Part shown: one piece after another, positions 12,364 through 42,803 of the stretch | How positions within the stretch are numbered: position 1 is the stretch's first letter | Layout of the letters: every line of letters starts with the position of its first letter | Virus record (IMG/VR): IMGVR_UViG_3300023181_000038 | Location: 1 to 50,488 of that record | DNA from: a virus | Taxonomy: Duplodnaviria; Caudoviricetes | Reading direction: 5' to 3' (one strand) | DNA length: 50,488 nt | Position numbers and translations under genes: made by a program | Notes under the pieces: generated by a model | The model's input: the letters and a program-made list of their open reading frames with translations, nothing else | The model's database searches: none | What the model was told of the DNA's origin: nothing

Positions 12364-12385
12364 ATAGCTATTTCTATTTTGAATT

Positions 12386-12466
12386 AAAACCGGGGGCAGC
12401 CCAATCCCGACTAAAAACCCACCACCCCCGGCGTCCAACGTCAGATTTAGGCCCTCCGTTGACACG
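12386..12466 (-). promoter_or_regulatory. Two-hairpin leader/attenuator upstream of the methyltransferase
   Basis: Stems 12432-12466 and 12390-12431, followed by TTTT. Confidence 0.45.
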
Positions 12467-12479
12467 GGCACTGTGAGAG

Positions 12480-12818
12480 TCATGCGGCCGCCACTTTGTT
12501 CTGAGAAATGATCTCTGTGATTGCGTCTACGTTCTTCACATTCATTACGGTGTCCAAAAGGAGCAGCACATCCTGCACATGCTCACCGTTCAATTCTGTG
12601 TAGATCATGCGCCAATTCTCGTCGTTGCCGGCATGCATGAAGGCTCTGTGCCTGCTGTTTTCAGTTAGCCGCTTCATGGCGTTCTGAATGTTCTTGATCT
12701 CCGCTTTCATATTTGAAGGGGTGGCGTTGTCCATCGCAAGCCAATCCAGCGATGCGCCAAAAATCTTTTGCAGATACAGCACACGGCGGAATGATGTTAC
12801 AAATGTTTGATGGCTCAT
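12480..12818 (-). CDS. Hypothetical protein
   Basis: TAATG-coupled, 112 aa. Confidence 0.75.
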   Translation of the reverse strand: MSHQTFVTSFRRVLYLQKIFGASLDWLAMDNATPSNMKAEIKNIQNAMKRLTENSRHRAFMHAGNDENWRMIYTELNGEHVQDVLLLLDTVMNVKNVDAITEIISQNKVAAA

Positions 12819-16409: not shown

Positions 16410-16919
16410 TTACAACAAAACATATCCGGCCTTATCAACCTTGCCAGCGTTGCGCAATTCAAGCAACTGACGCCATGTTTTACCGAATGCTTTTTCAAGA
16501 TGCGGGTAATCGCGGATTGTAGAAAATTTGCCGCCCCACTTCCACCCTGCATCCTCAAATACTTTTACTACTTCGCGCCAATCGGCTGCGCCGTCACCAT
16601 CGAAATCTTTGGCAATATCCCAGCTTACGGTTATCCCGTCAATAAGTAGGCAAAAGTCTATTGCGAGGCCATAGTTATGGAATGAAGATCCGGCATTTGC
16701 ATTGGTAACCTTCGCCCCCGGTTTCGTTCGCCCCTGCGCGTATAATGCGGCTTGCTCTGCGAATGTCCGGTAACCCTGCACTATTCTTATGGACGCGCGG
16801 CCTTTTAGCGCCTTAGACGCCTCTATATAAAGGCGCTTCGCTTCCTCTCTCAACTTTGGATGAAGCAACGCGATCCTATTGAGCGAAATAGCGTCTAATT
16901 CTGTTACGGTCTGTGCCAT
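16410..16919 (-). CDS. Endolysin, M15 (L-Ala-D-Glu) peptidase
   Basis: GYRTFAEQAALYAQGR...SFHNYGLAIDF...WGG...DYPHLE. Confidence 0.95.
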   Translation of the reverse strand: MAQTVTELDAISLNRIALLHPKLREEAKRLYIEASKALKGRASIRIVQGYRTFAEQAALYAQGRTKPGAKVTNANAGSSFHNYGLAIDFCLLIDGITVSWDIAKDFDGDGAADWREVVKVFEDAGWKWGGKFSTIRDYPHLEKAFGKTWRQLLELRNAGKVDKAGYVLL

Positions 16920-19492: not shown

Positions 19493-19852
19493 CTATGGTA
19501 TCATGTTCTTCCTTCGCAATCGCCTCTCCTGCCGAAAATACTTCACGTACAATACAGTAACAAGCAGGGCAGCTAAGTAGTTCGCGATATTAAACCGAGT
19601 AGGCACAGCCAATACGATAAACAGGACATTAATGATGGACAGGATAAGCAAGTATTCAGACGCAAGACGGGCCTGAGTGCGGCATCCGAGATTATTTATC
19701 GCCCACGCATAAAACACAGTTGCTAGAGCCTCCGTAATTCGGTTAATCGTGAGCCATGCTTCTTCGTCAATAAACCAACGAACATTACGCCCTGCGCCGT
19801 GAATAATAATCCCGGCGATAATGATGTAGGAGGCGTTACGGGCATTTACCAT
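19493..19852 (-). CDS. Four-TM membrane protein
   Basis: Four hydrophobic segments and a basic C-terminal tail. Confidence 0.75.
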   Translation of the reverse strand: MVNARNASYIIIAGIIIHGAGRNVRWFIDEEAWLTINRITEALATVFYAWAINNLGCRTQARLASEYLLILSIINVLFIVLAVPTRFNIANYLAALLVTVLYVKYFRQERRLRRKNMIP

Positions 19853-20193
19853 TTGATAGGCGGTGCAGTAGGGCCAACAATGCCGGCGCTACCATAAGTA
19901 GTCGTTGTGCCTACCCTTACGAATGTGGCGCTGAAATCGCCGTCATCAACCGCCGGAGTATAGACCAGGAACCGACCGCCCTCTGAGCTTGTTTCAAGGC
20001 TGTAGCCTGCCTCATTGTTGCCTACATAGTCAGCGGTAAGGCCAACAAGTGTGCCGTTAAATCCAAATGCAGAGATGGTATCTGCGTCGTCGTGCAATTG
20101 CCAATAGATGTTATCTGTCATTGAACGAAAATAAACCGTTTTGCCAGTTATTTTCTCCAATAGCCACGCCAAAAACCTAATTATATTTTTCAT
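19846..20193 (-). CDS. Hypothetical protein
   Basis: Amphipathic N-terminus, beta-rich body, Pro-rich end. Confidence 0.7.
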   Translation of the reverse strand: MKNIIRFLAWLLEKITGKTVYFRSMTDNIYWQLHDDADTISAFGFNGTLVGLTADYVGNNEAGYSLETSSEGGRFLVYTPAVDDGDFSATFVRVGTTTTYGSAGIVGPTAPPIKW

Positions 20194-20196
20194 TTA

Positions 20197-20496
20197 TTAT
20201 TTGCTATCAAGTGTTGAGGTGCTATCGTATTGTGCGGCTTTCCATCGTAGAACGCTGTCGCTAACATATAGGCTACGAAGGTCACTCGCAGAGTATCCCC
20301 AATTCGCAAGGCTAACGGTGAGCTTAGCCATGCTAGCAGCATTCTGTTTAGCATCTTCCAGCCTCCCCTCTTCACACTTCGCACAAGCATCCTGCTGTTT
20401 TGTGAGCATGAGGTAAAAAACAAATGCCATAACGTATCCGGCATCTCTCCCAATGAGCTTTCGCCATCCCGGCGGGGTGCTTGTATCTGTGGACAT
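20197..20496 (-). CDS. Single-TM protein with CxxC and a helical tail (possibly spanin-like)
   Basis: YVMAFVFYLML, then CAKC and a coiled segment. Confidence 0.6.
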   Translation of the reverse strand: MSTDTSTPPGWRKLIGRDAGYVMAFVFYLMLTKQQDACAKCEEGRLEDAKQNAASMAKLTVSLANWGYSASDLRSLYVSDSVLRWKAAQYDSTSTLDSK

Positions 20497-20555
20497 TGCA
20501 TAAATATAGTCTGTAAATACTGCGAATATAATATCTGTTTATCGTTACTTAGATA

Positions 20556-20861
20556 TTAATCCCCCCTTCGCCAATCCAAAGCCTTTATTAAATGGCGCAT
20601 GGCTAAACAGTAAGTAAGGTGCCCTAGTCGCATAATGGGATCAATAGTATAGCTGTCTACCAGAAACAGCGCCAACTGATTGAGCATTTGAATACACAGA
20701 GCGGCCCAAAATAGCTTTATGAACATCAGCCCGCTATGCGTGGTCTGCACATGCTTATCCTTCATTACACGGCGCAATTGCCCCAACAGCCCCGCACTCC
20801 AAACAATGAGCAAGGCGCTAAAAACCTTATTGATTAGGTAAATCGTCTGCTCCATCATCAT
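20556..20861 (-). CDS. Three-TM membrane protein
   Basis: Start MMMEQT; hydrophobic segments. Confidence 0.7.
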   Translation of the reverse strand: MMMEQTIYLINKVFSALLIVWSAGLLGQLRRVMKDKHVQTTHSGLMFIKLFWAALCIQMLNQLALFLVDSYTIDPIMRLGHLTYCLAMRHLIKALDWRRGD

Positions 20862-21165
20862 CCTTTTCCTTCTTTGAATTGAAAAGATCGTCCGCCGCCT
20901 TTTGCCCACCCTTCGTTATCCTGGCAGCCATTTCCTGAGAGGCGTATCCCGATGCAAAAGACAGTATACCGGATATGAACGGAGGAAGCCCCATGCCGAA
21001 GGTCAGCCATGCTACGGTGCCGGCCATGAGCGTTCCGCTAACAAACCTTGCCGCGAATCGCGCAAAGGGTTCTTTACCGTTTACTGCACGAATGATTGAG
21101 GCCGCTGCTCCTAACAGCGTGTTTGGCAACAAGTGCTTAACGTGTTCCGAATCGAGAAATGCCAT
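20827..21165 (-). CDS. Holin-like membrane protein
   Basis: Three TM segments, SFASGYAS motif, charged C-terminus. Confidence 0.65.
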   Translation of the reverse strand: MAFLDSEHVKHLLPNTLLGAAASIIRAVNGKEPFARFAARFVSGTLMAGTVAWLTFGMGLPPFISGILSFASGYASQEMAARITKGGQKAADDLFNSKKEKDDDGADDLPNQ

Positions 21166-21268
21166 TCAATTAGCATCGTGTCAGCAATAAGGGCGGACAA
21201 GGGAAGGGATTATGCAAAGGACATCGAAAATGTCGCACCAAATGCTTGAGATTACTGATTCCATGCTT

Positions 21269-21538
21269 CTACGGTTTGACTGCAACCACCTTCGCGTCGG
21301 TGAAAAAGTTCTTAACAATATACGCCGAACCTCCGCTAAAACCCGCAAGAAGTATGGGCTTAAAGGTGAGCATTGAGAATGTAAAATCGGGTCCGGCCAC
21401 TGCTTCATACAACGCACGTACAACAGCCGCGCCAACGGCAACGATTAACCCCTTGCCAACATCTCTCCAATTAAGGCGATACGGGCCACTACTGATAACC
21501 TTTAGCGGCGTCCCCGCCTGTACAATTTCGTCTGCCAT
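21269..21538 (-). CDS. Holin-like two-TM protein
   Basis: LNWRDVGKGLIVAV...SAYIVKNFFT. Confidence 0.7.
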   Translation of the reverse strand: MADEIVQAGTPLKVISSGPYRLNWRDVGKGLIVAVGAAVVRALYEAVAGPDFTFSMLTFKPILLAGFSGGSAYIVKNFFTDAKVVAVKP

Positions 21539-21543
21539 TGTGT

Positions 21544-21720
21544 TCAATCTATTGAGTAATTTGAGTGATTATATTCTGCTCTTGGAGCGGTTAATGTATC
21601 TGCGTTCGTATTGGATCCACCGCGAGGATTGCAGGACTGTGAGAAAAACCATAGCAGAAAGCCCAATGATACTGAAAACACAAAGAACCTCCCTGGTTGT
21701 AGCAATTCATTATTCATCAT
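21544..21720 (-). CDS. Small putative lipoprotein (not in ORF track)
   Basis: 58 aa: MMNNELLQPGRFFVFSVSLGFLLWFFSQS-C-NPRGGSNTNADT... Confidence 0.6.
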   Translation of the reverse strand: MMNNELLQPGRFFVFSVSLGFLLWFFSQSCNPRGGSNTNADTLTAPRAEYNHSNYSID

Positions 21721-21944: not shown

Positions 21945-22193
21945 TTACGCTTCCTGATTGTGTGATGCTTCATCCACTTCCTCAACAATATCCAATAGAC
22001 GAACCTTTGACCCATCCGGCAATACTATTATAGGGTTGCTGAGAAAGAAATGATACTGCGCGACAAGGTTCTTTTTAGCCTGCTGCAAGCCTGAAACGCG
22101 CTGCGAATCGGCCAACATCTCATTGTTCCCGGCAAAGGTCAGGACGCGCAATTTTCCGCCCTTGCCTGATCGTATTTCTCCGCGCTGTGCCAT
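21945..22193 (-). CDS. Hypothetical protein with its own promoter
   Basis: TAATTTTG at 22198-22205 directly upstream. Confidence 0.7.
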   Translation of the reverse strand: MAQRGEIRSGKGGKLRVLTFAGNNEMLADSQRVSGLQQAKKNLVAQYHFFLSNPIIVLPDGSKVRLLDIVEEVDEASHNQEA

Positions 22194-22202
22194 GATGCAA
22201 AA

Positions 22203-22973
22203 TTACTGCAATACTTCACGCCCCGAATTGTAGGTGTAGACGGGAGCGCCCAAAGTATTAATGCTGCGAAGTTTCACATAATAACCTGCTGGCACGAAGC
22301 ATGACAATTGACCTGCCTGTGTGTTCGTGTTTGTAATAGCCACAGCAAGGCCCACTACATTGCCGTTTGCCATCCTACCCACTTCAACCCAATCGCTTGC
22401 AGTCGCGCTATTTGTTGGTGCTATCTCAAGGACTATCGTACCTATAGCGCCGCCGCCAAGTGTTGATGTGGTCACTATAGTGGCGGAATAGCTAACAAGC
22501 GCGTCCCTTGTCGCGCTTACCTGGAATCCCGTAGCGCCTGTACTTGTAGTAATAGATCGCGTTACAGAAGTCATTATGCGAGGTGTTACCATGAAAGTAT
22601 CGCCCACCCGCGTTAGCCCATTGCCAGCCTGCAAATACGGCGAAGTGCTTTGCGCCCAACAGCTATTGCCGTTTTTTATTCGATAGCTGCCCGAATCAAG
22701 GCCGGGGCAATTACCTACCCAATTTAAGAAAACAGCGCGGTTATTAGCCAGCAGGACGCCAACAGGGGTTGCTACCTCTGTTGGGTCCGGTGACCATACT
22801 TTAAAAGAATCAATGCTCATCCCGACGAACAATTGCGCCCTGCCTCTATTTATACTATCCTTTGTTATCAAAGCTCCATTTCTAGTTAGCACAACAACAC
22901 CGGATGCTTGGCAGAATCCATTCCAATCGATAACGAGAAGTGTTAACAGGCATATCAGACGAATATCTTTCAT
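22203..22973 (-). CDS. Fibre-like protein with a signal peptide
   Basis: MKDIRLICLLTLLVIDWNGFC-Q; AGNGLT shaft motif; C-terminal ...FVPAGYYVKL beta domain. Confidence 0.75.
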   Translation of the reverse strand: MKDIRLICLLTLLVIDWNGFCQASGVVVLTRNGALITKDSINRGRAQLFVGMSIDSFKVWSPDPTEVATPVGVLLANNRAVFLNWVGNCPGLDSGSYRIKNGNSCWAQSTSPYLQAGNGLTRVGDTFMVTPRIMTSVTRSITTSTGATGFQVSATRDALVSYSATIVTTSTLGGGAIGTIVLEIAPTNSATASDWVEVGRMANGNVVGLAVAITNTNTQAGQLSCFVPAGYYVKLRSINTLGAPVYTYNSGREVLQ

Positions 22974-23002
22974 CGTTCAGTCTTTTATCGGGGTTAAAAT
23001 AA

Positions 23003-23212
23003 TTATGGGGTTACAGGGCAAGCGCCAATTTGATCGTTGTGCATGGTGTGTTGGAATAGCTGCGATACGGGAATCACAAGCGTCTGATATTGCGCAGGAC
23101 GGCGCGGTCCTACGATGCGATGGCAAACGGTAACTGTTGGCTCGTCTGCGGTAGCGGCAACGGTTGCGAGAAGTACAGCGCAAGCTGCTAGAATCATTGG
23201 TTTCTTTTTCAT
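23003..23212 (-). CDS. Small secreted Cys/His-motif protein
   Basis: Signal peptide ending ATA-D; VTVCH...TLVI...H..H.D.IGAC. Confidence 0.75.
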   Translation of the reverse strand: MKKKPMILAACAVLLATVAATADEPTVTVCHRIVGPRRPAQYQTLVIPVSQLFQHTMHNDQIGACPVTP

Positions 23213-23222
23213 GGTGTTTTAT

Positions 23223-24089
23223 TTAGTGCCCTACGGCGGTGTTAAAAATGGATATAGCCGCTGCCCTGTTTGTGGCCTCTGTTGCATTCAACCCTTGACC
23301 AAAGGATGCGAAGGTTATTACCCCGGTAAAATACCCGCCTGCTGTTCCGCCGCTATTAAGCGCGCCTATGTAGAATGGTTGAAATGTTGTCCCTAACTGA
23401 CTGTTTAGCGCGCTTGAATTAAAAACCACTCCGTCACGGTACAACGCGGTAACGGCTGCGCCCGTCCTTACGGCGAGCCAATCACCAACAGATGTTGTAC
23501 TTGTACCTGCAGCAGTGTTTGTTAAACCGTTGCCGTGTACGCTATATGTCGCTGTATTTGTGGCGCTTCTTGGCAATATCAATGTCCGGCGCGATGGGCT
23601 TTCAAAAACACCTAGCAGATAGAAATTGCCTCCGCTCGCAGACGTTGGCGTTGTTACTCCTACATGGAAATTATCTCTCTGCGCATTGGGTATTAAGTAA
23701 GCTGGATTAGCGTATTCAGCCCCGCTCAACACAAGCCCTGTTGAGTTGTGCGTAGGACCGCCTGTAAACGTCAATTTATGAGTCATCGTATCCCGCAGAT
23801 TGTATGCCTGCGTTCCAGCCGTGCCGCCCAAAAATGGATAAATGGCATAACACTTTGCCCATATACCGGCAGACTTCAACGAGATAACGAGATTCGTTAC
23901 TGCTGTTGCAAACGTTGGGTTTGAATTGTTGATGGCGAACAGATACTTATTCGCGTCCGTGTCAGATGGCGGCGCGGGCGGTGGCCCATACGCTTGATTA
24001 TTCGCGTGGAATACGGCAATAGGAGACTGTCCCGCAACCGGGATAGCCAAGCACAGACACAGGATCAGCTTAATTGTAATTCTTGCCAT
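23223..24089 (-). CDS. Lectin-like (ConA/LamG-like) fibre-associated protein with a signal peptide
   Basis: MARITIKLILCLCLAIPVAG-Q; AIYPFLGGT...LYRDGV...FYIGA. Confidence 0.75.
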   Translation of the reverse strand: MARITIKLILCLCLAIPVAGQSPIAVFHANNQAYGPPPAPPSDTDANKYLFAINNSNPTFATAVTNLVISLKSAGIWAKCYAIYPFLGGTAGTQAYNLRDTMTHKLTFTGGPTHNSTGLVLSGAEYANPAYLIPNAQRDNFHVGVTTPTSASGGNFYLLGVFESPSRRTLILPRSATNTATYSVHGNGLTNTAAGTSTTSVGDWLAVRTGAAVTALYRDGVVFNSSALNSQLGTTFQPFYIGALNSGGTAGGYFTGVITFASFGQGLNATEATNRAAAISIFNTAVGH

Positions 24090-25437
24090 AGTTCCAGAGG
24101 TACGATGTGCCATTGTATACAAATGAAATAATATCCACGGCACCGGCAGTGGTTGTAAGCGTGATAGCACCCGCGCCGCCACCAATGACCTTTGACCCTG
24201 CGGGTAGTGTCAATGTACGAGAACCCGTGCCATCCTGCGTAACGATAAGCGTGCCATAATCGCCCGCTGTCGCGCCTGATATGGCAAGCGTTCTATTCCC
24301 GCCGAGCGTCACCATTGCATTGTATCCGCTGCCGAATGTCCAAGTGATTGTAGCACCATCGGTAAGCGTCTGAAATGCCTTTGAGGGGATGGTTACTGTA
24401 TTAGACAGAACGCCGCTGCCATCAATCGCCAACCCTGTGCCAACTTTAACACCCCCCAATACGGAAGCGGATGCAGTAGGTAGGACATAGCCACTCCCTC
24501 CCGGTCCAAATCCGTTCCCGTCAACCTCAACAACAATGATGTCATTAAGCGTTACGCCGGATGTAAATGTTACTGTTGTCGATGTGGATGAATAAGTAGG
24601 ACGGAAAACATGCAAGCCATTACGGTATACGTGCAGCTTAGACGTATCAGACGGTATTGTGCCCGCTGTGACGTTAAAAAGCGTCTGCCCTGATGTTGCC
24701 ACGTATTGTTGTCGAAACCCGGGAGAATCGGCAAGATTCGCAATACCCAGGTTTGTTCTTGCTCCTGCTGCCGTTGTTGCGCCTGTGCCGCCATTCGCCA
24801 CGGCAAGCGTACCTCCTAAAGTGAGCGTTGTGGAGCCCGTCAGGGTGAGCCCTGTCGAACCACCTGAGCCGCCTGTTACTGTGCCGGTGTTTGACGTGTA
24901 ACCTGATGGGTTAGATGCAAGATAGTAGGTGTTGTTGTCGTATGTGATAACTCCGCTGTTAGCTTTGACGAATCCCGGCCCCGTAAGTTGCGCCTGCTTA
25001 CTCGCGATCAGCGCTGAATCACCCGAAGAAAGACCGCCGGCATACTGAGGGATGTTCAATGTATTCCCTACGAGCGTAGCAGCGCCGGAATTACCGGTTG
25101 TAGTGAGGGAGAGTGTGCCCTGCTTGCCGGCCAATGCCGTATTGATCCGGCTGCGGGTTGTATCAAGGCTGTACTTCGTGGCATAGATCGTGGAATCAGT
25201 CACGCCGGAGATTGTCAGCCAAACCGACCCGTTCCACAGCTGAATAGCGTTCGATTCATACCGGATAGAACCGGCCTGCTTTGGACCATACGCGCCTCCG
25301 TAGTCAAATTCTGTGGCAGATACTGCCGGGAGCTTCATCCGGGCAATTACTTCTAGCGCGTGATACCGGTATGGGATCGAAACCTGCGCATCAACAAAAA
25401 GGGGCAGTAAGAACAGTATTGCGATTAATCGTTTCAT
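24070..25437 (-). CDS. Tail-fibre-like protein with a signal peptide
   Basis: MKRLIAILFLLPLFVDA-Q; GTLAVANGGTGATTAAGARTNLG; YVLPTASASVLGGVKVG; TQDGTGSRTLT. Confidence 0.85.
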   Translation of the reverse strand: MKRLIAILFLLPLFVDAQVSIPYRYHALEVIARMKLPAVSATEFDYGGAYGPKQAGSIRYESNAIQLWNGSVWLTISGVTDSTIYATKYSLDTTRSRINTALAGKQGTLSLTTTGNSGAATLVGNTLNIPQYAGGLSSGDSALIASKQAQLTGPGFVKANSGVITYDNNTYYLASNPSGYTSNTGTVTGGSGGSTGLTLTGSTTLTLGGTLAVANGGTGATTAAGARTNLGIANLADSPGFRQQYVATSGQTLFNVTAGTIPSDTSKLHVYRNGLHVFRPTYSSTSTTVTFTSGVTLNDIIVVEVDGNGFGPGGSGYVLPTASASVLGGVKVGTGLAIDGSGVLSNTVTIPSKAFQTLTDGATITWTFGSGYNAMVTLGGNRTLAISGATAGDYGTLIVTQDGTGSRTLTLPAGSKVIGGGAGAITLTTTAGAVDIISFVYNGTSYLWNYGKNYN

Positions 25438-27368
25438 TATTTTTTCTCTATTCTTATTTCGTAGGTGAACTGCACAGGGTAGTCAGGAAAGAACCGGATG
25501 GCGTCTGCCGAATTGTGGTAAAACTTGGGAACCAGGAACTCCCCTTTTTTGGCATACAGCGTTATCCCGGTCAGTGTGTAAGAGCCCATCCGTTCCGTGC
25601 TGCCAAACTTTACCTGAGAGCGAACAATTTCTTTGTTGATGTATGCGAGATCGTTGACAGGGTTTCTTAATCGGCCCTGTACCGCGATCCCTACGATTCT
25701 TTCGCTCCCTGTGATGTCGTCCCCACAGGTGCCTTTGATCGTCACTTCGTATGTTCCATCCTCCGGTATCTCAATAAACCCGACTGAATCCTTTGCGACA
25801 AACCCGCCGCCGTCGGATTGCATAATGTGCCCATCGCGTTGATAATGGAAAGGGTCAGAATTGAAATTTATCTGAACAATAGCCGAACCGCTAAACGCTG
25901 CGTAGTTCTGATCACTCAATTTGTTGACGCGGATGATTGTACCATCCTGTGCCGTCGCGCCATCGTAAAGGATCGCGTATTTATTCCCGCTACCAGCCTG
26001 CACAACTGACGCATAGCCCCAATCGTAAGGGTTGTACCCGCGCGCTGTATTATCCGCTTCCGGTTTGAAGTCGTAGACCCTCGGGTTAGCTGCAAGTTTG
26101 GAGATGTCACGGATAACGCCGGTATCGCAGACGAAAGTCATTAGCTTGCCCGCTGAATTGCCACGATAACCAATAGTTATTTCTACCTTATCGCCGTAGT
26201 AAGCCACCTCAGAGGGATAGGCATAAGTTGTTGTTGATAGCCTAGCCGAAAAGTTGCCGGTGTAAGTAATGGTAGACCCGCCGTTATCGCTCCGATAGAC
26301 GCGCGATATAGACCCTGCTGCGGGGCGAATCACATAGATAATAGAACCGTTTGGAGCTTGCGCAAAACCCATTTCATTCATCAAAACGCCCGTGTCTATG
26401 TAGGACTTAACGGAGAATGTCTTCCCGCTGTCTAGGCTTTTTAGCAGGACAACCTTGTTTTTTATCGAGTAAGCGCCAACGTGGTATTCCCCGTTTTGCA
26501 TCAATTTGCCTTTCCCAAAGATGACAAGTGTATCACCGGGGAAAGCCGGCTGAGCTTGCGCCGGGGCATTAACCCATGTAGCGCCGGAATCATCCGAATA
26601 CCGTACTGCGAATGTGTTCGCGCCTATTTTGTTATACGGCACTATAATCCTACCTCCCGGTCCAATCCCTGAACTGTATCCTGCTACGTCCATCGTGTTG
26701 ATTACCGTATCCGGCACACTCCATTTGCCATTGTAGACCGTGTGCATTACATAAGCTGTACTGTTATGGTTCGGTGCCTCTGTGTACAGTACGTGATGCT
26801 TTGCGCCCAATGTACTTGCAACAGGGAATCCGCGATAACTCACAATGGATGGTGTGTTTATTTCGCCTTCTGTAATGTCAGGTGACGGCACGTCGAACAA
26901 AGAAACCGCAGGGCCAACTTTCAAAACCCCTGAATCGTCTGTTATTACCGTCCTAATCCCATTGCCTGAAATCCCTATATCTCTAATGTTGCCTACTACA
27001 TGCAGCGCATGGGTAGGAGATGAAGTATTGATACCAACACGCCCGTTAGAATCCCACATTGAACTATTGCCCAAAACGGTAGGGGCGGTAAATTTTGAGG
27101 CGTAGTTAGCCGTACCGGTGCCTGTGAGAGTGCCAGAACCGCCACCCGAACTTTTTGTGCGAAGCGTAAGAAGGCCATTCCCGTCGATTCCCAATACCTT
27201 ATTGCTATCAGAATTAGCAAGGTTTGTTAGATAAACCTTATTGCCAATACGGAGTTTGCCTAAAATATAATTAGAATCATTAACCCCCGATCCGCCTACC
27301 CGCCCAGGGTTCTGCGCGGAAGATAAAAGGGCAAATGAAACTATAAGTAGTGTTATTAGAATTCTCAT
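25437..27368 (-). CDS. Spike/depolymerase-like protein: Asp-box (sialidase-like) propeller plus C1q-like C-terminus, with a signal peptide
   Basis: MRILITLLIVSFALLSSA-Q; GRVGINTSSP; Asp-boxes SDDSGATW, SLDSGKTF, SDNGGST. Confidence 0.8.
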   Translation of the reverse strand: MRILITLLIVSFALLSSAQNPGRVGGSGVNDSNYILGKLRIGNKVYLTNLANSDSNKVLGIDGNGLLTLRTKSSGGGSGTLTGTGTANYASKFTAPTVLGNSSMWDSNGRVGINTSSPTHALHVVGNIRDIGISGNGIRTVITDDSGVLKVGPAVSLFDVPSPDITEGEINTPSIVSYRGFPVASTLGAKHHVLYTEAPNHNSTAYVMHTVYNGKWSVPDTVINTMDVAGYSSGIGPGGRIIVPYNKIGANTFAVRYSDDSGATWVNAPAQAQPAFPGDTLVIFGKGKLMQNGEYHVGAYSIKNKVVLLKSLDSGKTFSVKSYIDTGVLMNEMGFAQAPNGSIIYVIRPAAGSISRVYRSDNGGSTITYTGNFSARLSTTTYAYPSEVAYYGDKVEITIGYRGNSAGKLMTFVCDTGVIRDISKLAANPRVYDFKPEADNTARGYNPYDWGYASVVQAGSGNKYAILYDGATAQDGTIIRVNKLSDQNYAAFSGSAIVQINFNSDPFHYQRDGHIMQSDGGGFVAKDSVGFIEIPEDGTYEVTIKGTCGDDITGSERIVGIAVQGRLRNPVNDLAYINKEIVRSQVKFGSTERMGSYTLTGITLYAKKGEFLVPKFYHNSADAIRFFPDYPVQFTYEIRIEKK

Positions 27369-27910
27369 GCGGGTATTTGTTGAACCAAAACGTAAATGTT
27401 TACATTATCATACTCTAGCAATTCCTGCGATGCGACAGGCTCTAGGAATTGAGACCCTATAAACACAGCCAATACTTGCGCATCGCCAATGGTTGCCTTT
27501 AGCGCGTCTACAGTTACCGGCCCGATTACAGGTATAGGAGTTGATTGCGAATATATCTCATCCGGCGTCCCCACCTGATAGCACCGCATTTCTGATAGGT
27601 AAATAGCCATTATTTCGATTGATGAATATTCTTCAATGTTGTAGTAGGTAATGCCACCACCAATGATGGCCGAAAATGTGCCCTGTAGCCCGTTAATTAC
27701 TTTAAATACGTCATTTAGGTAAGTAACTAACGCTGTCTTATTGGCAAATATAATCTCTATCGGGTAAGGAGTGCCGTTGATAAGCAACCCGACAACTTGT
27801 ATGTTATTAAATGGCAGCCTGTCCGAATCAATCACAAGCAATGTAGCCGCCTCTTTCCTCATCAGAGAAACGCAGCCGCCGCATCGCACTATAAATTGAT
27901 AGCCTATCAT
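27365..27910 (-). CDS. Hypothetical tail-region protein
   Basis: 181 aa, N-terminal CGGC; position in the tail module. Confidence 0.65.
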   Translation of the reverse strand: MIGYQFIVRCGGCVSLMRKEAATLLVIDSDRLPFNNIQVVGLLINGTPYPIEIIFANKTALVTYLNDVFKVINGLQGTFSAIIGGGITYYNIEEYSSIEIMAIYLSEMRCYQVGTPDEIYSQSTPIPVIGPVTVDALKATIGDAQVLAVFIGSQFLEPVASQELLEYDNVNIYVLVQQIPA

Positions 27911-27913
27911 TAC

Positions 27914-29680
27914 TTAGTCTGTGTACACGCTCCACCCTGCGGCCTGTAGGTCAAAAATAGCCGGTGCGGAAGAGATTGTTGGAGGTGCTGCCGGCGTCTG
28001 CCCTGAAAGGTCTATCGAACCGCCACCGGAATAGTTTGTGTTATCCGCAAGGCTAATCAGTATGTTGTCAACCTGTGTAGAGCTGAGTGTATTTGTAGAA
28101 AGATCGATGTTTACAAGGTTTGCGAAAGCGTTAGCGGGAGTGGTTACAAAGTATGGTCCCGTACCAATGTTATCTAACCCTGATACCTCCACTTTGAAAG
28201 ACGAAAGGCTATTCTTTGCCGGCAGGATGTTAGCCAGATCAAAGAGAGGGATATTGTGCGCAATGATTTGAAAGTAAATCATCGATACAGGCAGGTCACC
28301 GTCAAAAGCTGTCAGCACCGGCACGTCAATAGGCGCGATAAAATACAACCGGTTGATTGTGTTTTTATGGTAGAAACGTATGCCCGAATTCCCACCCGGA
28401 AGAGTAAAGCCATTGTTTGCTATACCTGATGCCGGCAGATATTGCCCTGCTAAGTTCGATCCAACTATGATGTGATCGCCCGCGTATGTGTACCCGAACG
28501 CGCCACCGCCTGTAATGGTCGTATCAAAGTACCCTGCCATTGTCACGCCCGTTGCAGACGAATAGCTTTCATCTGGCCCGTTTGAGTAGAAATAAAAGCC
28601 GCCGGATGTAGTAAATACCCCATCAAGGCCAATCGCATTAAGGCTTGCCAAATAAGCGTTTTCAGCAGTTGAATCGAGTATCTCAACAACATTAACACCT
28701 AACGGAGATAGAGGAATAGTTGAAGCCGCATCAGACATTGACAGGTCAGCCAATGCGTAGGGGAATGTTGCGGGACGCTCAAATAACTGCAAATCACCTG
28801 TGCCGTATGTCGTGGTATCTATTGCCCGTTTCTCCTGCAAGGCTACCGTGCCGGTTGATAACGGGGTAGGCGTTCTTTCTGTGCGGTCAAGCGTGGAGTT
28901 TTCCGCCCTGACAAAATTCTTTTGATCAATATTGAGCGTAGGGCATACTAATATTTCCTCAATTATGTCCAGCGCCCAAGCGGGCAGCCCCATTTCTGAA
29001 TGTCGGTACAGCTTCGCGCCTACAAATAGCTCACACTCCCGTATCCGGTCCGAATGAAGTAATTGCGGGTCTTTAATCTGATTTATGAATCTGCTATCGT
29101 CGTAAATGCTGCGATAGTTCCTGAATTCCCCTTCCGCCCTGAATTGAAAATTAGGTTTTAGCACCCACCACACGTTATGCGGGTCCTCTGCCGTGCCTTT
29201 GTAGCGATAGAGCAACGTTCCCGGCCAATCCGCCGCTACGTCCATTGGCTCGCTGATATAACGGCGTGTTTCGCCATCTCTTACCGTTGTGACTAAAACA
29301 CAGTATCGCCCCGGCGGGTAGGTAGCATTATCGAGCGGTATGCGGTATTGGTAGGTATCCAACTGCACACCGTTTTGTGTGTTGCCTGCTGCTTGTAGCG
29401 AATTATTTAAAGCAATTGTAGCTATGGTAACCGCATTACAGTCTATAACCGTGCAGACAATAGTCCCGCCTAACAGGTCGTTCGTATTGACCTGGAATGT
29501 GATCGTATCCCCATTGCGCCACTTTTGATAGTACTGTGATTTGCGATTCCACCACAGGTAGGAATCCTGATACCAATCTTTGCGTAGATGCTTTGTGTAA
29601 AATGCCGCGTTCGTCACCGCATCCATTAATACTAATGGAATCGGGTTCATGGCCGGTGTCTGAAAGATATGTGAGGCCAT
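27914..29680 (-). CDS. Tail tip/baseplate protein with an LRR-like C-terminus
   Basis: Y.QKW..GD.ITFQ; NLVNIDLSTN.LS...VDNIL...L.AAGWSV. Confidence 0.7.
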   Translation of the reverse strand: MASHIFQTPAMNPIPLVLMDAVTNAAFYTKHLRKDWYQDSYLWWNRKSQYYQKWRNGDTITFQVNTNDLLGGTIVCTVIDCNAVTIATIALNNSLQAAGNTQNGVQLDTYQYRIPLDNATYPPGRYCVLVTTVRDGETRRYISEPMDVAADWPGTLLYRYKGTAEDPHNVWWVLKPNFQFRAEGEFRNYRSIYDDSRFINQIKDPQLLHSDRIRECELFVGAKLYRHSEMGLPAWALDIIEEILVCPTLNIDQKNFVRAENSTLDRTERTPTPLSTGTVALQEKRAIDTTTYGTGDLQLFERPATFPYALADLSMSDAASTIPLSPLGVNVVEILDSTAENAYLASLNAIGLDGVFTTSGGFYFYSNGPDESYSSATGVTMAGYFDTTITGGGAFGYTYAGDHIIVGSNLAGQYLPASGIANNGFTLPGGNSGIRFYHKNTINRLYFIAPIDVPVLTAFDGDLPVSMIYFQIIAHNIPLFDLANILPAKNSLSSFKVEVSGLDNIGTGPYFVTTPANAFANLVNIDLSTNTLSSTQVDNILISLADNTNYSGGGSIDLSGQTPAAPPTISSAPAIFDLQAAGWSVYTD

Positions 29681-31800
29681 TAGTTAATAAGGTCTGCGGG
29701 GTCTACGTCAGGATGACAGAGCAAAGTAAAATCATATTGTTGAGGGAACGCCGGTTTAGTGCCCACCTCCATTGCAAAGCCTTTCAATAATCTCCCTTTC
29801 CAATAGAACGAAAAGTAACCGTGAGGCATGGCGTCCATTAATGTAATCATATTGGCGCTAGGCACGCAGGTAAAGCGCAACAATATTGGCAGGAAGTAAG
29901 GGTTAGTCAAAAGGCTGTTGGGTATGTCTGCCTTTTCTGATACCGTACCCGCACCGATGTTGCTTACAAGGTCTACATTCTTATCCCCGGTCTTAAAGAT
30001 AATGTCAGAGTTGCGAAGGTGCATGATAGCCGCCTCTAGCCGTGCGCCTCTAAGTTGCTTCCTGTGCGGCGTAAGCGCGATATTATAGACACTGCCGGGG
30101 AATGGCACACCGGAAGTATTGAGGAACGTGTTGGGCCTGTAAATAGTCCAGGCACCGTTTACTTGCGTATTGCTAATGTCGATCAGGATTGTATCATTAT
30201 CGCTTCCGCTGTCGGTTGTGGTTTTATTAGCTAGATTCCTGCGTATAAACTCAATGCCTATGGAATCCGCGCGGAATGAACTAAGTCTGTCAGCCTCTTC
30301 CTGATTCCGCGTAAAGCCATGTGTCAACGTCTGCCCCTGATTGTATTCAAATCGCCCATTTAGCTGATCGTAATCACGCGCCTGATACCCGATCTGAACT
30401 TTGTTCACAAAAACATCATTGTATGGCGGAGTTTTCAGGTCGGTTACTTCACCCAAATTAGCGATCTCCGTATTTTGGAATACTTCTGCCAACGGCACCA
30501 AAGCCAATTCCCCTCCCGGATTAAGTGTGTTTGTCACCTCAATAAGGCCCATACTCCATTGCGTTGAAGCATCCTGAAATACATCAGCAATTGTTGTTTT
30601 GATCTTCGCGTCTGGCAGACCGCGCACCGCATCACCGCATGTCACTGCCGTATTGTATGGACGGCTATCCCAAAAGGCATTGCGAGAAAAGCCCGAATTG
30701 GTCAGCAGTGTAGACGTGCCGGCAACAGATTGTCCGATAGCCTGACCGACAATCTTCGCCCAAAGCTGCCAGTAACGATATGCCTTAATTGTTGTTTCGG
30801 GGTATAATGAACTAAATGATATTTTGATTGATGGGGTAGAATTAACGGGTATGCCGTAATTCCAATCAGCGCCGGGGTTCGGTGTTGTCATGCTGGCCCT
30901 GAAATAGAGCTTATCCCCCGGCTGCATCGTAACGCTAAAAGAACCGGATGGGCTAAAAGTCAATCCGTCGAAATTGAGATAGTTATTCTCGCTGATTATA
31001 TCGTTAATAAATCCCGTGACGCCCGCCGAATCCTTAACAAAGAAACCTACACGATACACTGCCGCCAATGGTGAGGCAATGGCAGTGCCTGTAATCTCAA
31101 AGTCGTAATCGACAGTGATAATAGTTGGAGTTGATGCCTGAAAGAAATGTTTGCCTGCAAATTGCAAAGAGGCAACATCTGAATAATCAACATTTTGTAC
31201 ATCCTGATCGTCCCCCGTTTCCGTAGCAACTAGGGTTATCTTAGGGACATTGGCGATGTTTATATTATCCCCCAAAGGATTATTGCTCATAATGAACGAT
31301 GCGCTATTCAATAGCTGCACACCATCCATTTTTACCGACAGGCAATCGGCATCCCCTATCGTTATTTCTTGAGGGACACGTTCATTTGCTTTCAATAGCG
31401 CCTGCACATTTGATTCCAATATCTGCACTTGCGGCAAATCGGGATCGCCGTCGAACTTGCTAAAGTCTATCGCGCCTGAGTAGTAAGGCACATACAGCCA
31501 TTGCCCCGGTTCACGTATTTCTATCGAAAGAATGGCATCGCCTTCAATCCCTTGTGTAAGGTAGACATGGCATACAATCCTTGCCGCGTCCGTGTGCATT
31601 TGGTAAGGCGTGGTGAGCGTTCTGCCAATGCCCCAATAGGTAGGGTGCCGGAGCCATTTAATCTCTGTCTGATCCCATCCGATAGGCGCATCAATATATC
31701 GTGGGTTACTATCGGTAGCAACTTGCCCAATACTATTTACATAGTAGTATCCGCCCTGTGGCGTCATTATGCTGAATCGGAACTTACCAGGGGTAGCCAT
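29680..31800 (-). CDS. Tail hub/distal tail protein
   Basis: Directly after the tape measure; APIGWD, IGY...NGRFEYN, RADSIGIEF. Confidence 0.75.
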   Translation of the reverse strand: MATPGKFRFSIMTPQGGYYYVNSIGQVATDSNPRYIDAPIGWDQTEIKWLRHPTYWGIGRTLTTPYQMHTDAARIVCHVYLTQGIEGDAILSIEIREPGQWLYVPYYSGAIDFSKFDGDPDLPQVQILESNVQALLKANERVPQEITIGDADCLSVKMDGVQLLNSASFIMSNNPLGDNINIANVPKITLVATETGDDQDVQNVDYSDVASLQFAGKHFFQASTPTIITVDYDFEITGTAIASPLAAVYRVGFFVKDSAGVTGFINDIISENNYLNFDGLTFSPSGSFSVTMQPGDKLYFRASMTTPNPGADWNYGIPVNSTPSIKISFSSLYPETTIKAYRYWQLWAKIVGQAIGQSVAGTSTLLTNSGFSRNAFWDSRPYNTAVTCGDAVRGLPDAKIKTTIADVFQDASTQWSMGLIEVTNTLNPGGELALVPLAEVFQNTEIANLGEVTDLKTPPYNDVFVNKVQIGYQARDYDQLNGRFEYNQGQTLTHGFTRNQEEADRLSSFRADSIGIEFIRRNLANKTTTDSGSDNDTILIDISNTQVNGAWTIYRPNTFLNTSGVPFPGSVYNIALTPHRKQLRGARLEAAIMHLRNSDIIFKTGDKNVDLVSNIGAGTVSEKADIPNSLLTNPYFLPILLRFTCVPSANMITLMDAMPHGYFSFYWKGRLLKGFAMEVGTKPAFPQQYDFTLLCHPDVDPADLIN

Positions 31801-31803
31801 GTG

Positions 31804-34800
31804 TTATGCCCAATTCTGTTTTATGTAAGCGCGCATGCTTGCGTCAACCTGAATGTTTACTTTGCTGCCCTTAACTGCACGTTCAATTCTTGCTCCCCAT
31901 TTATCGAATGATTCGTTATTCCCATTTGCTGCTTTCTGCGTTTGAATATTACGCACCAATTGAGGGGCAAGCATACCGTAAGCCATAGCATTAAGCCGCT
32001 CTGACGGGATAACCGTAGTGCCTGCGCGAAGATCTTTAATCTGATCTCCTTTTACGGCGTATGGATCCCGCCCCGGTTCGATGATGTACTCCAATCCGCT
32101 TTTGTTATCCCCTACGCGGGCCAATCCACCTTTGTGCTTCGCCTTCCCATCAATACCCGCACCCTCTGCGTAAGCTGGCAGTGGTGTGGCAAGTACGGTA
32201 GCAAGTTGAATGGCACCAACGCCGGCGCTCAATGCAGCTAATGGGATACCGGCAACCGGTCCAAACTGTGAGAACGCCTTAATTACGGCCTGTGCGGTCA
32301 ATGCGATGATTTCACCAATGGCAATAGCCCTTTCGTATTTCGCCTGATCCCTGCGCAATTGCTTTTCTCTCGCTGCAATGTCTTCACGTTGTGCCGCTGC
32401 CTTTGCTTCCGCTACCGCTATCCGCGCCTGCTTTTCTTCCGCGAAAAATGCCGCCTTCTCTTCGTCTGATATGTTTTGAAGATTGTACTTCTCCAATAGC
32501 TTTTGGCGCTCTTCCTGCGACATTATCGACGCCTGAATAGCACGCACCTCTTTATCCTTATTCTTATCGATTTGCACCTCTTCATTTTGAAGGCTTGCAA
32601 ACCGTGTTTCAAATTGAGCGGATACTACTGTCTTAAAAAGGGTGTACAGGGCTTTCATTGCCTCTGCCCGCTTGTCATCTATTTTTTTACTAAGCTCCGC
32701 CGCTTTCTCGTTGTCCTCAATTATTTGGTCGTTCTTCTCCTTATTCAGCGCTACCTCAATATCGTGATACTTCTTTTGCAGGGCCGTGGTATCATAGCCC
32801 ATCCTGCCAAGCTCAAAAAGCTCAGTCCCTATACGATTTTTCAGGGCTTTCAGTTCTTCTAAGTCGTACTTGTCGTTTATATCCTTTAGCTGCTTCCGGT
32901 ATTTCTCTTCCGATATAAGGCCGTTCTTAAAACGCGCTGACAATGCGATACGCTCATTCTGTTCGTCAATACTTCTTGACGCACTTATGGCGCTTAAGTC
33001 ACCCTCGTATAGCTTTTGACGCTCTAATAGATAGTTCCGAGTTATGCCTATTATCTGCGCGTTAGTGTCCATCTCCGCGTTAATTCGCAGATTCAATTCA
33101 GGGAATCCCTTTTTGTCCTTTGCTGTCCTTTCCTTTGGCGTTGCAGGGTCATTACCAAACAGCGTTTGTCCCGCAAGTGCAGCGGATTTTTGCGCGTCGG
33201 TGAGATATTTCGATTGCTCTTTTTGAGCCTCTTTTAACGCTGCTGTAATGTCGTTAAAACGCTTCTTTAATTCTGTGACTTTGGTTTGGGCAAAAAACTG
33301 ATCCAACCCCCGACTTTCTGCATCACCGGTCTTACCCGCCTTATCTCGCGCCTCTCTTGCTTTGGTGAGATCTTCCAAAGCCTCCGTTTGTGCCGTAGTG
33401 AGGTCGTAAACAGTTTCACTTGCGGCTGCAAATTTCTTTTCCGCCGCCTGTGCCGCCGCCCTGTTAAGAAGCGCCTGAGTGGCTTCGTTTATCGCTGCCG
33501 TGGCTTTGCCTTGTAGAATTATTTCTTTGTCAAGATTGCCGAAGTAGTCGGGATATGTTTCTTGCAGTTCTTTTATCGCCCTTGCCCTATTACCTGTGGA
33601 TTGCTCATTGTCCGCTGCGAGTGTGGTAAGAATATTCAATCTTGCAATTTCCTGTTGCGCTGCAACGCGGGACGATGATTCTATGTTGTCAATACTTTCT
33701 TTGTACTTTTTATTGGCAGCTTCGGCTTTCTTTGATGCTGCACTTGCGCCTGTGAACACTCCTACAATCTTATCGCCAAATGTTGTGGCAACAATAATAA
33801 TGCCCAATAAAAGGGTGTTCATTGAAAACAATGTATTGATTAGCCGTTTGCCCACGCTGGAATTTGCCGCCGTAGCTGCTGTATTTTCAGTAACAGCAAC
33901 ATTCAGGCGGTTCATCGCAACAGTTGATTCCGTTGCTGCTACAGCCGCCGCGCCGTTTGCCCTTACCTGACCGCCAATCGCTGCCGCATCATCCACATTA
34001 GCCCCTGCGTTTAGCAATATTGCCTCGGTGTTAACTGCCGCCGCTTCTGCTGCCTCAATTGAAGTTGCCGATGCCGCAATTTGCTCTGCAATTTGCTCTT
34101 TTATGGCAACTGCTTGTTCCGTTGTGGCAGTGATGTTATCTACAATCGAATCAACCTGATCCGCAAGCGCATTGCCGGTGGCTTGAGATAGCTTTATGGC
34201 TTCGGCTTGCAGTGCCTTTTGCACCTCCAATTGCGTATTGAGCGCCGCAGTGTTGGCGGCAAACTCTTTCACCTTTAGGGATGCCTTGCTCAACTCATCA
34301 AAAAATTGCGGCAACTGATTAGACCATGAAAGAAACAATTGTTGTGCAGATTGTACGGATGGCACCTCTCGCAATAGCCCCTGCAACGAAGCGCCGAGCC
34401 CATCATAAGCGGATTTGTAGTTACCAACATTCCGTTGATTCTGTCCAACCGCCGCTTCAATAGTCCCTAGCTTGTCGCTTAGTTCTTTTGCATTTTTAAT
34501 GGCGGCAATAGTCCGGGCATCACCTTCGCCAAGTGTGAGATAAAATTCCTTAGCCTGTTTTTCAGCCAGCCCGTATTCTGCACGAAGTTTACCGTAAGCC
34601 GTTTGTAGGCTATTCGCGCCCTTAGCCTCCCGTGCTGCCGCTGCTGTAGCCTTATTGCTGCGGTCAATCTTCCTGTCAGCCTCTTTTGATGTAATTGCAT
34701 CTGCTGCCGCTCGCTCTTTTGCTGCTTTTGCCGCAAACAAATCAGCCTTCCCTGCTTCTGTGGCCGTTTTGCTAAGGTCAAGGTTGGCTTTTATCAACTT

Positions 34801-35004
34801 CGCCGCTGCCGCATCTGCCCTTGCCTGCGCACTCAGGAAAGCAGTAATTCCTTTTGCATCACCCAGCGCATTAGCCGCATCACGTGCCGCCTCTGCATAT
34901 TTAGCAATAGCGGGTATGCCATCCTGCACGGCCTTAGTCGCACGATTGACGTTATCAATCGCGGAACTAGGGATAATCTCTACTATATCTGCAAAATCGG
35001 CCAT
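31804..35004 (-). CDS. Tail tape measure protein
   Basis: 1066 aa, Ala/Lys-rich helical; QRNVGNY; hydrophobic segments; C-terminal P.YAEG...GGLARVGD. Confidence 0.92.
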   Translation of the reverse strand: MADFADIVEIIPSSAIDNVNRATKAVQDGIPAIAKYAEAARDAANALGDAKGITAFLSAQARADAAAAKLIKANLDLSKTATEAGKADLFAAKAAKERAAADAITSKEADRKIDRSNKATAAAAREAKGANSLQTAYGKLRAEYGLAEKQAKEFYLTLGEGDARTIAAIKNAKELSDKLGTIEAAVGQNQRNVGNYKSAYDGLGASLQGLLREVPSVQSAQQLFLSWSNQLPQFFDELSKASLKVKEFAANTAALNTQLEVQKALQAEAIKLSQATGNALADQVDSIVDNITATTEQAVAIKEQIAEQIAASATSIEAAEAAAVNTEAILLNAGANVDDAAAIGGQVRANGAAAVAATESTVAMNRLNVAVTENTAATAANSSVGKRLINTLFSMNTLLLGIIIVATTFGDKIVGVFTGASAASKKAEAANKKYKESIDNIESSSRVAAQQEIARLNILTTLAADNEQSTGNRARAIKELQETYPDYFGNLDKEIILQGKATAAINEATQALLNRAAAQAAEKKFAAASETVYDLTTAQTEALEDLTKAREARDKAGKTGDAESRGLDQFFAQTKVTELKKRFNDITAALKEAQKEQSKYLTDAQKSAALAGQTLFGNDPATPKERTAKDKKGFPELNLRINAEMDTNAQIIGITRNYLLERQKLYEGDLSAISASRSIDEQNERIALSARFKNGLISEEKYRKQLKDINDKYDLEELKALKNRIGTELFELGRMGYDTTALQKKYHDIEVALNKEKNDQIIEDNEKAAELSKKIDDKRAEAMKALYTLFKTVVSAQFETRFASLQNEEVQIDKNKDKEVRAIQASIMSQEERQKLLEKYNLQNISDEEKAAFFAEEKQARIAVAEAKAAAQREDIAAREKQLRRDQAKYERAIAIGEIIALTAQAVIKAFSQFGPVAGIPLAALSAGVGAIQLATVLATPLPAYAEGAGIDGKAKHKGGLARVGDNKSGLEYIIEPGRDPYAVKGDQIKDLRAGTTVIPSERLNAMAYGMLAPQLVRNIQTQKAANGNNESFDKWGARIERAVKGSKVNIQVDASMRAYIKQNWA

Positions 35005-35948: not shown

Positions 35949-36049
35949 TTTTTACGCGCCCATGTGCGGCCCCTTTCCTTAGCCTGTTCTTTGAGCGCGT
36001 TATCATGGGCTATTTCTCTTTCTGTTGATTGGCAGTTTATGCAACTCAT
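35831..36049 (-). CDS. Small hypothetical protein (CxxC N-terminus)
   Basis: MSCINCQ; ATGA-coupled. Confidence 0.65.
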   Translation of the reverse strand: MSCINCQSTEREIAHDNALKEQAKERGRTWARKNGYANRSMVLAATANGGYTFYAPDRDPIGIREVERFFVH

Positions 36050-36513
36050 TTTAGAAACTCTGTGGCAAATTTTCGTTTAACAACCGGCCCCCAAATCTTA
36101 CTCCAAAGATACTCCCGGCTTTCTTGGGTTAATCCCAAAGCCTGATTGCCGGTTTTGTTCTGAATATCAGTGCCCCACGGAACATTGGCAACCATTCTAT
36201 ACCCCTGCCCTACAACCTCTAGTTTTATTAAGCTATGGGTGTAGCCATTGATGAAGAAGTTACGCACGCCACGCGGCGTCTGTGGCGTTATCTTGGCTTT
36301 GTAGCGCTCGTATGCCTCCGCTTGCTTTGGCCTCCCTGCAAAATATGGATCATCTACATACCGTCCGAGCGTACCGCCGTCTTTCCCTTTCCCCTCCATC
36401 ATCTGCGCTCTGTTTAGAACAATCGCTGGTAGTGGATTCTCTACCATTGCGTCAGCGGTGAGGTTAACGAGATTGATTCGCCGCAGCCGTTTCAGTATTT
36501 CATTGAAGCCCAT
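36046..36513 (-). CDS. Putative tail completion/neck protein
   Basis: NRAQM..G...G...LGLTQES; start MGFNE follows a terminator. Confidence 0.65.
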   Translation of the reverse strand: MGFNEILKRLRRINLVNLTADAMVENPLPAIVLNRAQMMEGKGKDGGTLGRYVDDPYFAGRPKQAEAYERYKAKITPQTPRGVRNFFINGYTHSLIKLEVVGQGYRMVANVPWGTDIQNKTGNQALGLTQESREYLWSKIWGPVVKRKFATEFLK

Positions 36514-36517
36514 CGGT

Positions 36518-36546
36518 AAAAAGAAAGGCGGCAACATGGCCGCCTT
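36518..36546 (-). terminator. Intrinsic terminator after the capsid-to-tail-tube block
   Basis: AAGGCGGC-N6-GCCGCCTT with a U-tract on the minus strand. Confidence 0.8.
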
Positions 36547-41830: not shown

Positions 41831-41834
41831 CGGT

Positions 41835-42802: not shown

Positions 42803-42803
42803 A

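Follow-up and report, generated by a model that had tools for sequence, protein, structure and literature searches.

The window analysed here is the whole 50,488-nucleotide IMG/VR record IMGVR_UViG_3300023181_000038, a single contig which represents the entire genome of a siphovirus-like phage. Its minus strand carries one long late operon, running from head and tail genes through a five-gene module (22203-27368) to a set of small membrane-protein genes. The five open reading frames (ORFs) of the module, p643 (25437-27368), p455 (24070-25437), p288 (23223-24089), p69 (23003-23212) and p256 (22203-22973), are all on the minus strand and are the last five genes of the tail operon. Each begins with a stretch resembling a Sec signal peptide, as had been noticed in an earlier reading of the DNA letters without database searches (hereafter the sequence-only reading), and the ORFs, N-termini and cleavage sites quoted there were all recovered. 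Leaders were called with a home-made heuristic scoring n-, h- and c-regions, not with SignalP, and it flagged all five ORFs (predicted cleavage sites SSA↓Q, VDA↓Q, VAG↓Q, ATA↓D and GFC↓Q, in the order given above). They share a basic n-region, an uncharged core of 10-17 residues (leader Kyte-Doolittle maxima of 3.08-3.44) and small residues at positions -3 and -1, with leader lengths of 17-22 residues, and the sequences past the leaders contain no other hydrophobic segment (highest 19-residue Kyte-Doolittle mean 1.46). The residue at +1 is Gln in four of the five (p643, p455, p288 and p256) and Asp in p69.

Across the genome, the same heuristic flagged 7 of 91 ORFs in a greedy set, namely p643, p455 and p256, three small membrane proteins and a plus-strand ORF which is probably spurious; through overlap, p288 and p69 had fallen out of this set, and they were scored separately. 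None of the other 17 minus-strand ORFs of the set between 27365 and 47505 was flagged, a group which includes the terminase, portal, capsid, tail and tape measure proteins as well as the three tail-tip proteins p706, p588 and p181, so that the capsid, tail, tape measure and tip proteins are indeed leaderless, as first read. The probability of a run of five arising by chance among 70-85 genes with 8-10 flagged is at most 1.4e-4 to 6e-4. The ORF starts are supported by stop/start overlaps (ATGA between p181 and p643, TAATG between p643 and p455), and because fibre-repeat homology in p643 begins around residue 14-35, a downstream start would cut conserved sequence (the next Met is residue 104). 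For p288, the ATG start was used, and its reading frame extends up to a TTG at 24185. The five ORFs represent genuine late genes whose translation is coupled to that of the tail-tip genes.

Most Bacteroidetes substrates of signal peptidase I (SPI) expose an N-terminal Gln upon cleavage, according to a study on this point (PMC5837995). As fibre- and spike-type proteins with Sec/SPI leaders that obey this Bacteroidota Q-rule, the five module proteins are very probably exported. The Gln-at-+1 habit fits the portal protein of the phage, which is 44% identical to the portal of a prophage in a Pedobacter (Bacteroidota) genome and suggests that the host phylum is probably Bacteroidota. This prophage is the only genome relative: the portal is common to both, the tail module is different, and the prophage fibre of 1348 amino acids (aa) is leaderless.

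It seems unlikely, by comparison, that nothing is exported, the hydrophobic N-termini being baseplate-buried helices or false positives on ordinary cytoplasmic fibres. The reliance on a home-made heuristic speaks for this explanation, as do the Cys at -1 in p256, which is an uncommon cleavage residue, and the possibility that the p69 N-terminus is a membrane anchor. Signal-peptide calls on major capsid proteins, attributed to prohead protease cleavage in an earlier report (PMC10367356), provide a precedent for such false positives. However, all five N-termini combine a basic n-region, a core with a Kyte-Doolittle mean above 3 and small -3/-1 residues placed 17-22 residues from the start, Gln follows in four of them as is the hallmark of Bacteroidota, and the other late proteins lack N-termini of this kind. 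Homologues from Pseudomonas phages, described below, add to this.

Regarding the destination of the five proteins, we detected no C-terminal sorting domain of the type IX secretion system (T9SS) in any of them (Pfam at E≤0.1, NCBIfam at E≤1) and no lipobox with Cys at +1 in p643, p455, p288 or p256, while a LAAC motif in p69 (residues 8-11) lies too near the start for a usual lipobox. The periplasm is therefore the predicted destination. The Bacteroidota O-glycosylation motif D-(S/T)-(A/I/L/V/M/T) occurs 8 times in the five mature proteins, where 5.0 would be expected, too weak an excess to use (13 observed against 17.4 expected in 14 leaderless late proteins), and cysteine counts were uninformative.

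The first and largest of these proteins, p643, consists of the leader (residues 1-18), stalk repeats (~20-150), a predicted sialidase-like six-bladed propeller (~165-520) and a C-terminal domain (~520-643). The stalk repeats, which start at about residue 14-35 and thus almost straight after the leader, are common to hundreds of fibre and secreted proteins: there were 780 matches at E≤0.001, the 150 listed all having their best stretch within residues 5-206, and a leader-like start was found in 52 of 151 matching proteins (the 150 listed matches and one other). The body of p643 had no relative among 1.84 billion representatives nor by word-based search, and a PDB sequence search returned nothing. 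The “Asp-box propeller” of the sequence-only reading is retained here as a predicted fold, which three Asp-box-like motifs (residues 258, 311 and 360) and an ESM Atlas model (predicted local distance difference test, pLDDT, of 0.61) with template modelling (TM) scores of 0.54-0.59 to BNR_2 sialidase clusters favour, the direct Pfam BNR_2 match being weak and below cut-off (E 0.05, 13.4 bits for a cut-off of 31.4).

In p455, the leader (residues 1-17) is followed at once by fibre modules and then by a distal knob (~340-454), and the fibre motifs quoted earlier for the mature part were found at residues 209, 319 and 400. Its PHROG matches are weak (phrog_5481, tail fibre, E 0.0015; phrog_19976, E 0.0031). 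Relatives of p455 are encoded in 148 viral stretches, from which 79 loci were kept, and the 92 ORFs behind the BLAST matches of p455, p643, p288 and the tape measure protein in these 79 viral loci are mostly leaderless with typical fibre N-termini. The distal knob is common to small leaderless fibres, and residues ~25-135 align with a module located inside leaderless fibres of 1057-1869 aa (L033, L047, L051, L067 and L071). The p455 leader thus stands directly before what is elsewhere an internal fibre module, and the usual N-terminal part is missing. In BLAST alignments, the leader stretch LPLFVDA (residues 11-17) also pairs with the LPSYVDD that opens the internal module of the leaderless fibres, a likeness which may be due to chance or may hint at a leader that arose beside that module.

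Next in the operon, p288 comprises a leader (residues 1-20), a Pro-rich linker and a concanavalin-A-like/LamG domain (~43-288), which accounts for the lectin-like domain mentioned in the sequence-only reading. It matches phrog_17104 (E 3.4e-7), and its model (pLDDT 77.1) resembles domain 4 of AbnA (E 7e-8), a trans-sialidase lectin domain and CBM40 in the PDB, and concanavalin-A-like/LamG domains of phage proteins in BFVD (best E 1.4e-23). In the viral structure library, long phage proteins have this fold at their tip, and it is found as a stand-alone protein as well. A leader was present in none of 17 p288 relatives and was therefore gained in this lineage. The probable small gene p69 encodes a leader or membrane anchor (residues 1-22) and a 47-residue mature part with two Cys, and has no homologue and no family in Pfam, PHROGs or NCBIfam.

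The last gene of the module, p256, encodes a leader (residues 1-21), a poorly modelled N-domain (22-130) and a TNF/C1q-like jelly-roll tip (133-256). The tip is confidently modelled (blocks from residue 131 average pLDDT 83-97), its structural matches are TNF, C1q, BxpB and TNF-like lectins, and it corresponds to phrog_31472 (residues 133-256, E 1.6e-29; 173 relatives at E≤0.001), the family which this jelly roll defines. Leaders recur in this family: 34 of the 120 listed matches from the protein collection and 25 of 42 ORFs from viral contigs (40 loci) were flagged, at least four further ORFs (in L086, L099, L101 and L115) have a leader behind a mis-called start, and a 98%-identical copy of p256 (P0152) has kept its leader. 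Hence the relatives of the module proteins differ in this respect, leaders being lacking in those of p288 and in most of those of p455, but not generally in those of p256. The contigs involved span G+C contents of 0.34-0.61, which points to diverse hosts. For 17 of the 25 flagged rows, a leaderless ORF of at least 400 aa is among the three ORFs listed upstream, which suggests that the exported protein comes in addition to leaderless genes of tailspike or receptor-binding protein (RBP) type. The p256 fold, like that of p288, is present at the tip of long phage proteins, and a leaderless 742-aa form of the family exists in Erwinia phage Bue1.

Three cultured Pseudomonas phages encode a clearly leader-bearing member of this family: AF (AF_025, L080 4368-5390, after an annotated tailspike, endolysin and Rz/Rz1), AH02 (gene 17, L126 2712-3860, after a “tailspike” and a “major tropism determinant”) and Orisa03 (gene 38, L125 2901-3821, beside a leaderless 627-aa protein). 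The Pseudomonas-phage members have host-appropriate cleavage motifs (AFA↓G, CFA↓A), and the motif D-(I/L)-(L/V/F)-x-(N/D)-Q-R-(N/R)-x-x-D lies right past the predicted cleavage site in all three phages. Such a conserved mature N-terminus looks like a docking peptide for some partner, and this shared design, with its own cleavage motifs ahead of it, is a further argument against leaders that are mere artefacts of prediction. The fibre motif of p455 is also present in the AF and AH02 members. In AH02 gene 17, the leader begins at a Met situated 17 codons downstream of the annotated GTG start. PHROG 31472 members and p256 have the TNF-like C-terminal domain in common, and the members mostly bear a Sec leader with fibre motifs or collagen repeats. 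AF, AH02 and Orisa03, however, have one such gene each, whereas in the window five leader-bearing genes follow one another and the N-domain of p256 is different.

We found no syntenic relative of the module in the searched collections (p588 and p706 returned nothing in viral contigs, p706 nothing in metagenome contigs, and neither the DNA of 22000-31800 nor the p455 and p288 proteins matched the phage collection), so that the comparison had to be made family by family. A general enrichment of leaders among fibre homologues was ruled out, since a stricter heuristic flagged 6 of 75 distinct ORFs with fibre matches (one of the six a false positive by eye) against 56 of 852 ORFs overall. Leader-bearing fibres are instead a minority that occurs in runs between structural and lysis genes of other viral contigs: a 1554-aa fibre followed by a 124-aa leader-bearing ORF, a 165-aa lipoprotein-like ORF and an endolysin in L003/L004, a 1645-aa protein with further leader-like ORFs in L018, leader-bearing ORFs of 510, 379 and 947 aa in L038, and five leader-bearing ORFs in a row in L028. 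Several of the leader-bearing ORFs in these runs have Gln after the leader. In L004 (2258-12049), the portal gene and two small ORFs precede the 1554-aa leader-bearing tail-fibre homologue, and the endolysin is of lysozyme type. As queries for cultured Bacteroidota phages, the L004 and L018 proteins either matched just the internal fibre modules of unrelated phages or had no match.

Our preferred explanation, put forward tentatively and with somewhat less than even confidence, is that the five proteins are an exported adjunct of the adsorption apparatus which acts on envelope glycans. They would be made as periplasmic proteins rather than as cytoplasmic virion parts, with the Gln at +1 free for pyroglutamate capping, and would reuse receptor-binding-protein modules from which the N-terminal part of the leaderless homologues has been lost and replaced by a leader. 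Late in infection they would build up in the periplasm and be released at lysis, and the periplasmic or released proteins might then bind the envelope glycans recognised by the phage, or trim them, masking or destroying receptors on the infected cell and on debris, so that progeny would not be lost and other phages would be kept out. We favour such an adjunct because the p455 leader abuts an internal module, because the p643 repeats start at once, and because the p256 family co-occurs with leaderless tailspike or RBP-type genes. The predicted sugar-related folds (sialidase-like propeller, concanavalin-A-like lectin and TNF/C1q-like tip) would support a glycan-directed role.

A second explanation, possible but which we consider doubtful, is that the five are the phage's own side fibres or spikes, exported by Sec and docking onto fibreless tail tips when the holin opens the membrane or after lysis, with periplasmic processing (removal of the leader, a pyroglutamate cap, perhaps O-glycosylation or disulfides) on the way. 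In position and in their tight coupling to tail-tip genes they match receptor-binding proteins, and their stalk repeats, knob, lectin and propeller modules are common to annotated tail fibres. All five have a leader, even p288 from an otherwise leaderless family, as would be expected if the components of a single complex have to come together in the same compartment. The genome has no clear leaderless fibre, and in other contigs, such as L004, L038, L018 and L028, leaders are present on the largest fibre-like genes located between the structural and the lysis genes. In T4, the long fibres are the last to be attached and can also be supplied to particles in vitro; together with the large size of holin lesions, this makes mixing before the outer membrane breaks physically plausible. 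Yet the mature N-termini of p455 and p643 reach mid-fibre modules within ~10-25 residues, which leaves no room for the usual attachment domain; none was recognised in either protein, although a short docking peptide could still be accommodated. In addition, leaderless genes of tailspike or RBP type are already present in the cultured phages that encode a member of the p256 family. A tailed phage with exported virion proteins did not emerge from the full-text literature, in which subscription journals were thinly covered, and we know of none. A holin-gated final assembly of virions outside the cytoplasm with Sec-exported fibres, in scattered phages that are probably of Bacteroidota, is an idea to which we give rather less credence than to the glycan-directed adjunct. 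Of the inference drawn in the sequence-only reading, export is thus upheld by the leaders, the Q-rule and the recurrence in other phages, joining of particles at or after lysis is one possibility, and the action on the host envelope that it gave as an alternative appears at least as likely.

Several points nevertheless weigh against an exported adjunct. Five proteins of ~1,700 residues in total, or 10% of the genome, are much for masking, for which one or two would be enough, and long repeat stalks fit a virion better than a periplasm. The module sits at the exact position of receptor-binding proteins, and its coupling to tail genes implies late expression, while exclusion proteins are usually early. 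A Sec leader alone reaches only the periplasm, with neither a T9SS domain nor a lipobox to take the proteins to the surface, and glycan binding or cleavage by them is a suggestion drawn from predicted folds. Lastly, neither Pfam, PHROGs nor an ESM Atlas search with p588 revealed a recognisable leaderless fibre in the genome, in line with what was first reported for this DNA, and p588 and p706 remain the candidates for such a role.

These candidates belong to the three leaderless minus-strand genes upstream of the module: p706 (29680-31800), which matches the virion structural protein family phrog_15220 (E 2.3e-42), p588 (27914-29680), for which the ESM Atlas returned only viral hypothetical proteins, and p181 (27365-27910). 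All three are candidate hub, baseplate or central receptor-binding proteins, and p588, judging from its sequence, might serve as the particle's central receptor-binding protein. The C-terminal ~150 residues of p588 form a leucine-rich-repeat-like stretch, judged by eye. If the exported proteins were decoys paralogous to a tip protein, some resemblance between the two would be expected; this idea was ruled out, as p588, p706 and p181 showed no similarity to the exported proteins (best E 0.67) and no leaderless tip protein resembles those of the module, which again counts against the adjunct.

Directly downstream of the module, small minus-strand ORFs with one to three hydrophobic segments occupy 19493-21547 (e.g., 21269-21547, and 20827-21165 with a charged C-terminus). 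From their sequences, these small membrane proteins look like holins or other lysis proteins, and their presence directly after the module is one reason to consider a periplasmic envelope or lysis role, in which trimeric fibre-like proteins would bridge or destabilise peptidoglycan and outer membrane at lysis. Also in keeping with such a role, the family member adjoins the lysis cassette in AF and Orisa03, the Pseudomonas-phage members are conserved at both ends (mature N-terminal motif and TNF-like tip), and no spanin pair was recognised among the six small downstream proteins tested, none of which had a PHROG match. We nonetheless regard this role as very improbable, given that AF and Orisa03 already have annotated Rz/Rz1-type spanins, that the sialidase-like and lectin folds point to glycans and not to membranes, and that the gene follows fibre genes, not lysis genes, in AH02 and L095. 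Lysogenic conversion was set aside as another explanation, as there was no integrase among the scanned proteins (many small ORFs were left unscanned).

A secretion signal is absent from canonical tail fibres and tailspikes, which start with an N-terminal virion-attachment part. The module resembles canonical fibres such as endosialidase tailspikes and T4 long fibres in operon position, stalk repeats and distal propeller, lectin or knob, but the leader stands where the virion-attachment part would be. Virion proteins with Sec leaders that are assembled outside the cytoplasm are familiar from filamentous phages (pIII and pVIII). These differ from the module in belonging to another virus realm and in leaving the cell by membrane-associated extrusion with no lysis, and are relevant only to the possibility of fibres that join the particle late.

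Closer in layout are phage proteins that act on the host envelope, namely T5 Llp, which blocks the receptor (10.1101/2022.06.28.497910), phi80/N15 Cor, and lambda Lom, which bears a signal peptide and lies between tail-spike and fibre genes (PMC12309495). Like the module genes, these have a secretion signal and stand beside tail-fibre/RBP genes, but they are single small lipoproteins or beta-barrels that are not fibre-like, whereas the module consists of five late-coupled fibre, propeller and lectin proteins. No Pfam, PHROG or NCBIfam match places the module in the known superinfection-exclusion or receptor-blocking families (Llp, Cor and Sim), and the likeness is one of layout only. Porphyromonas gingivalis phages encode five Q-rule leader genes of unknown function, suggested to be outer-membrane modifiers (Matrishin et al., 2023, PMC10367356); these are again genes of Bacteroidota phages whose predicted SPI cleavage exposes Gln, but unlike the five module genes they are not described as a fibre module in the part of that report available. 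In the full-text literature, with the coverage noted above, we came across neither an account of a complete fibre/spike module bearing secretion signals nor one that treats PHROG 31472 as exported.

The prevailing view is that the particles of tailed phages are assembled entirely in the cytoplasm, and genome-based RBP prediction assumes so. A recurrent class of fibre-like proteins with secretion signals would represent either a new RBP-derived exported factor that reshapes the host surface or an assembly step outside the cytoplasm, and under either reading the RBPs called from the genomes of such phages would be incorrect or incomplete, with consequences for host prediction and phage engineering. 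An exported factor, if true, would matter for superinfection exclusion, the masking of receptors and the release of progeny in Bacteroidota and also, by way of PHROG 31472, in phages of Pseudomonas. Assembly outside the cytoplasm, if true, would be categorically new, as the first case of a tailed phage using the host secretion pathway for part of its particle. The question is directly testable in the cultured Pseudomonas phages AF, AH02 and Orisa03.

The rest of the late operon, likewise on the minus strand, includes genes for the terminase (46204-47505), portal (44762-46195), major head protein (39292-40398), a tail protein (36046-36537) and the tape measure protein (31804-35004; phrog_25337 and phrog_20660), which marks the tail operon. 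An M15-type endolysin gene (16410-16919) lies apart from the module, past two plus-strand genes, and two HNH-endonuclease-like genes (10035-10478 and 4603-5094) and a DNA methyltransferase gene (11698-12483) are located in the replication region. No sheath protein, tRNA or integrase appeared among the genes scanned, many small ORFs having been left unscanned. Between the head genes and the portal gene, a group of small plus-strand genes (41784-44577), one of which encodes a 63-aa membrane protein (43875-44066), breaks the minus-strand operon. Finally, the last 126 bases of the window (50363-50488) are an exact direct repeat of positions 20-145, with 19 extra bases before the first copy, which suggests a circularly closed assembly or a terminally redundant genome.

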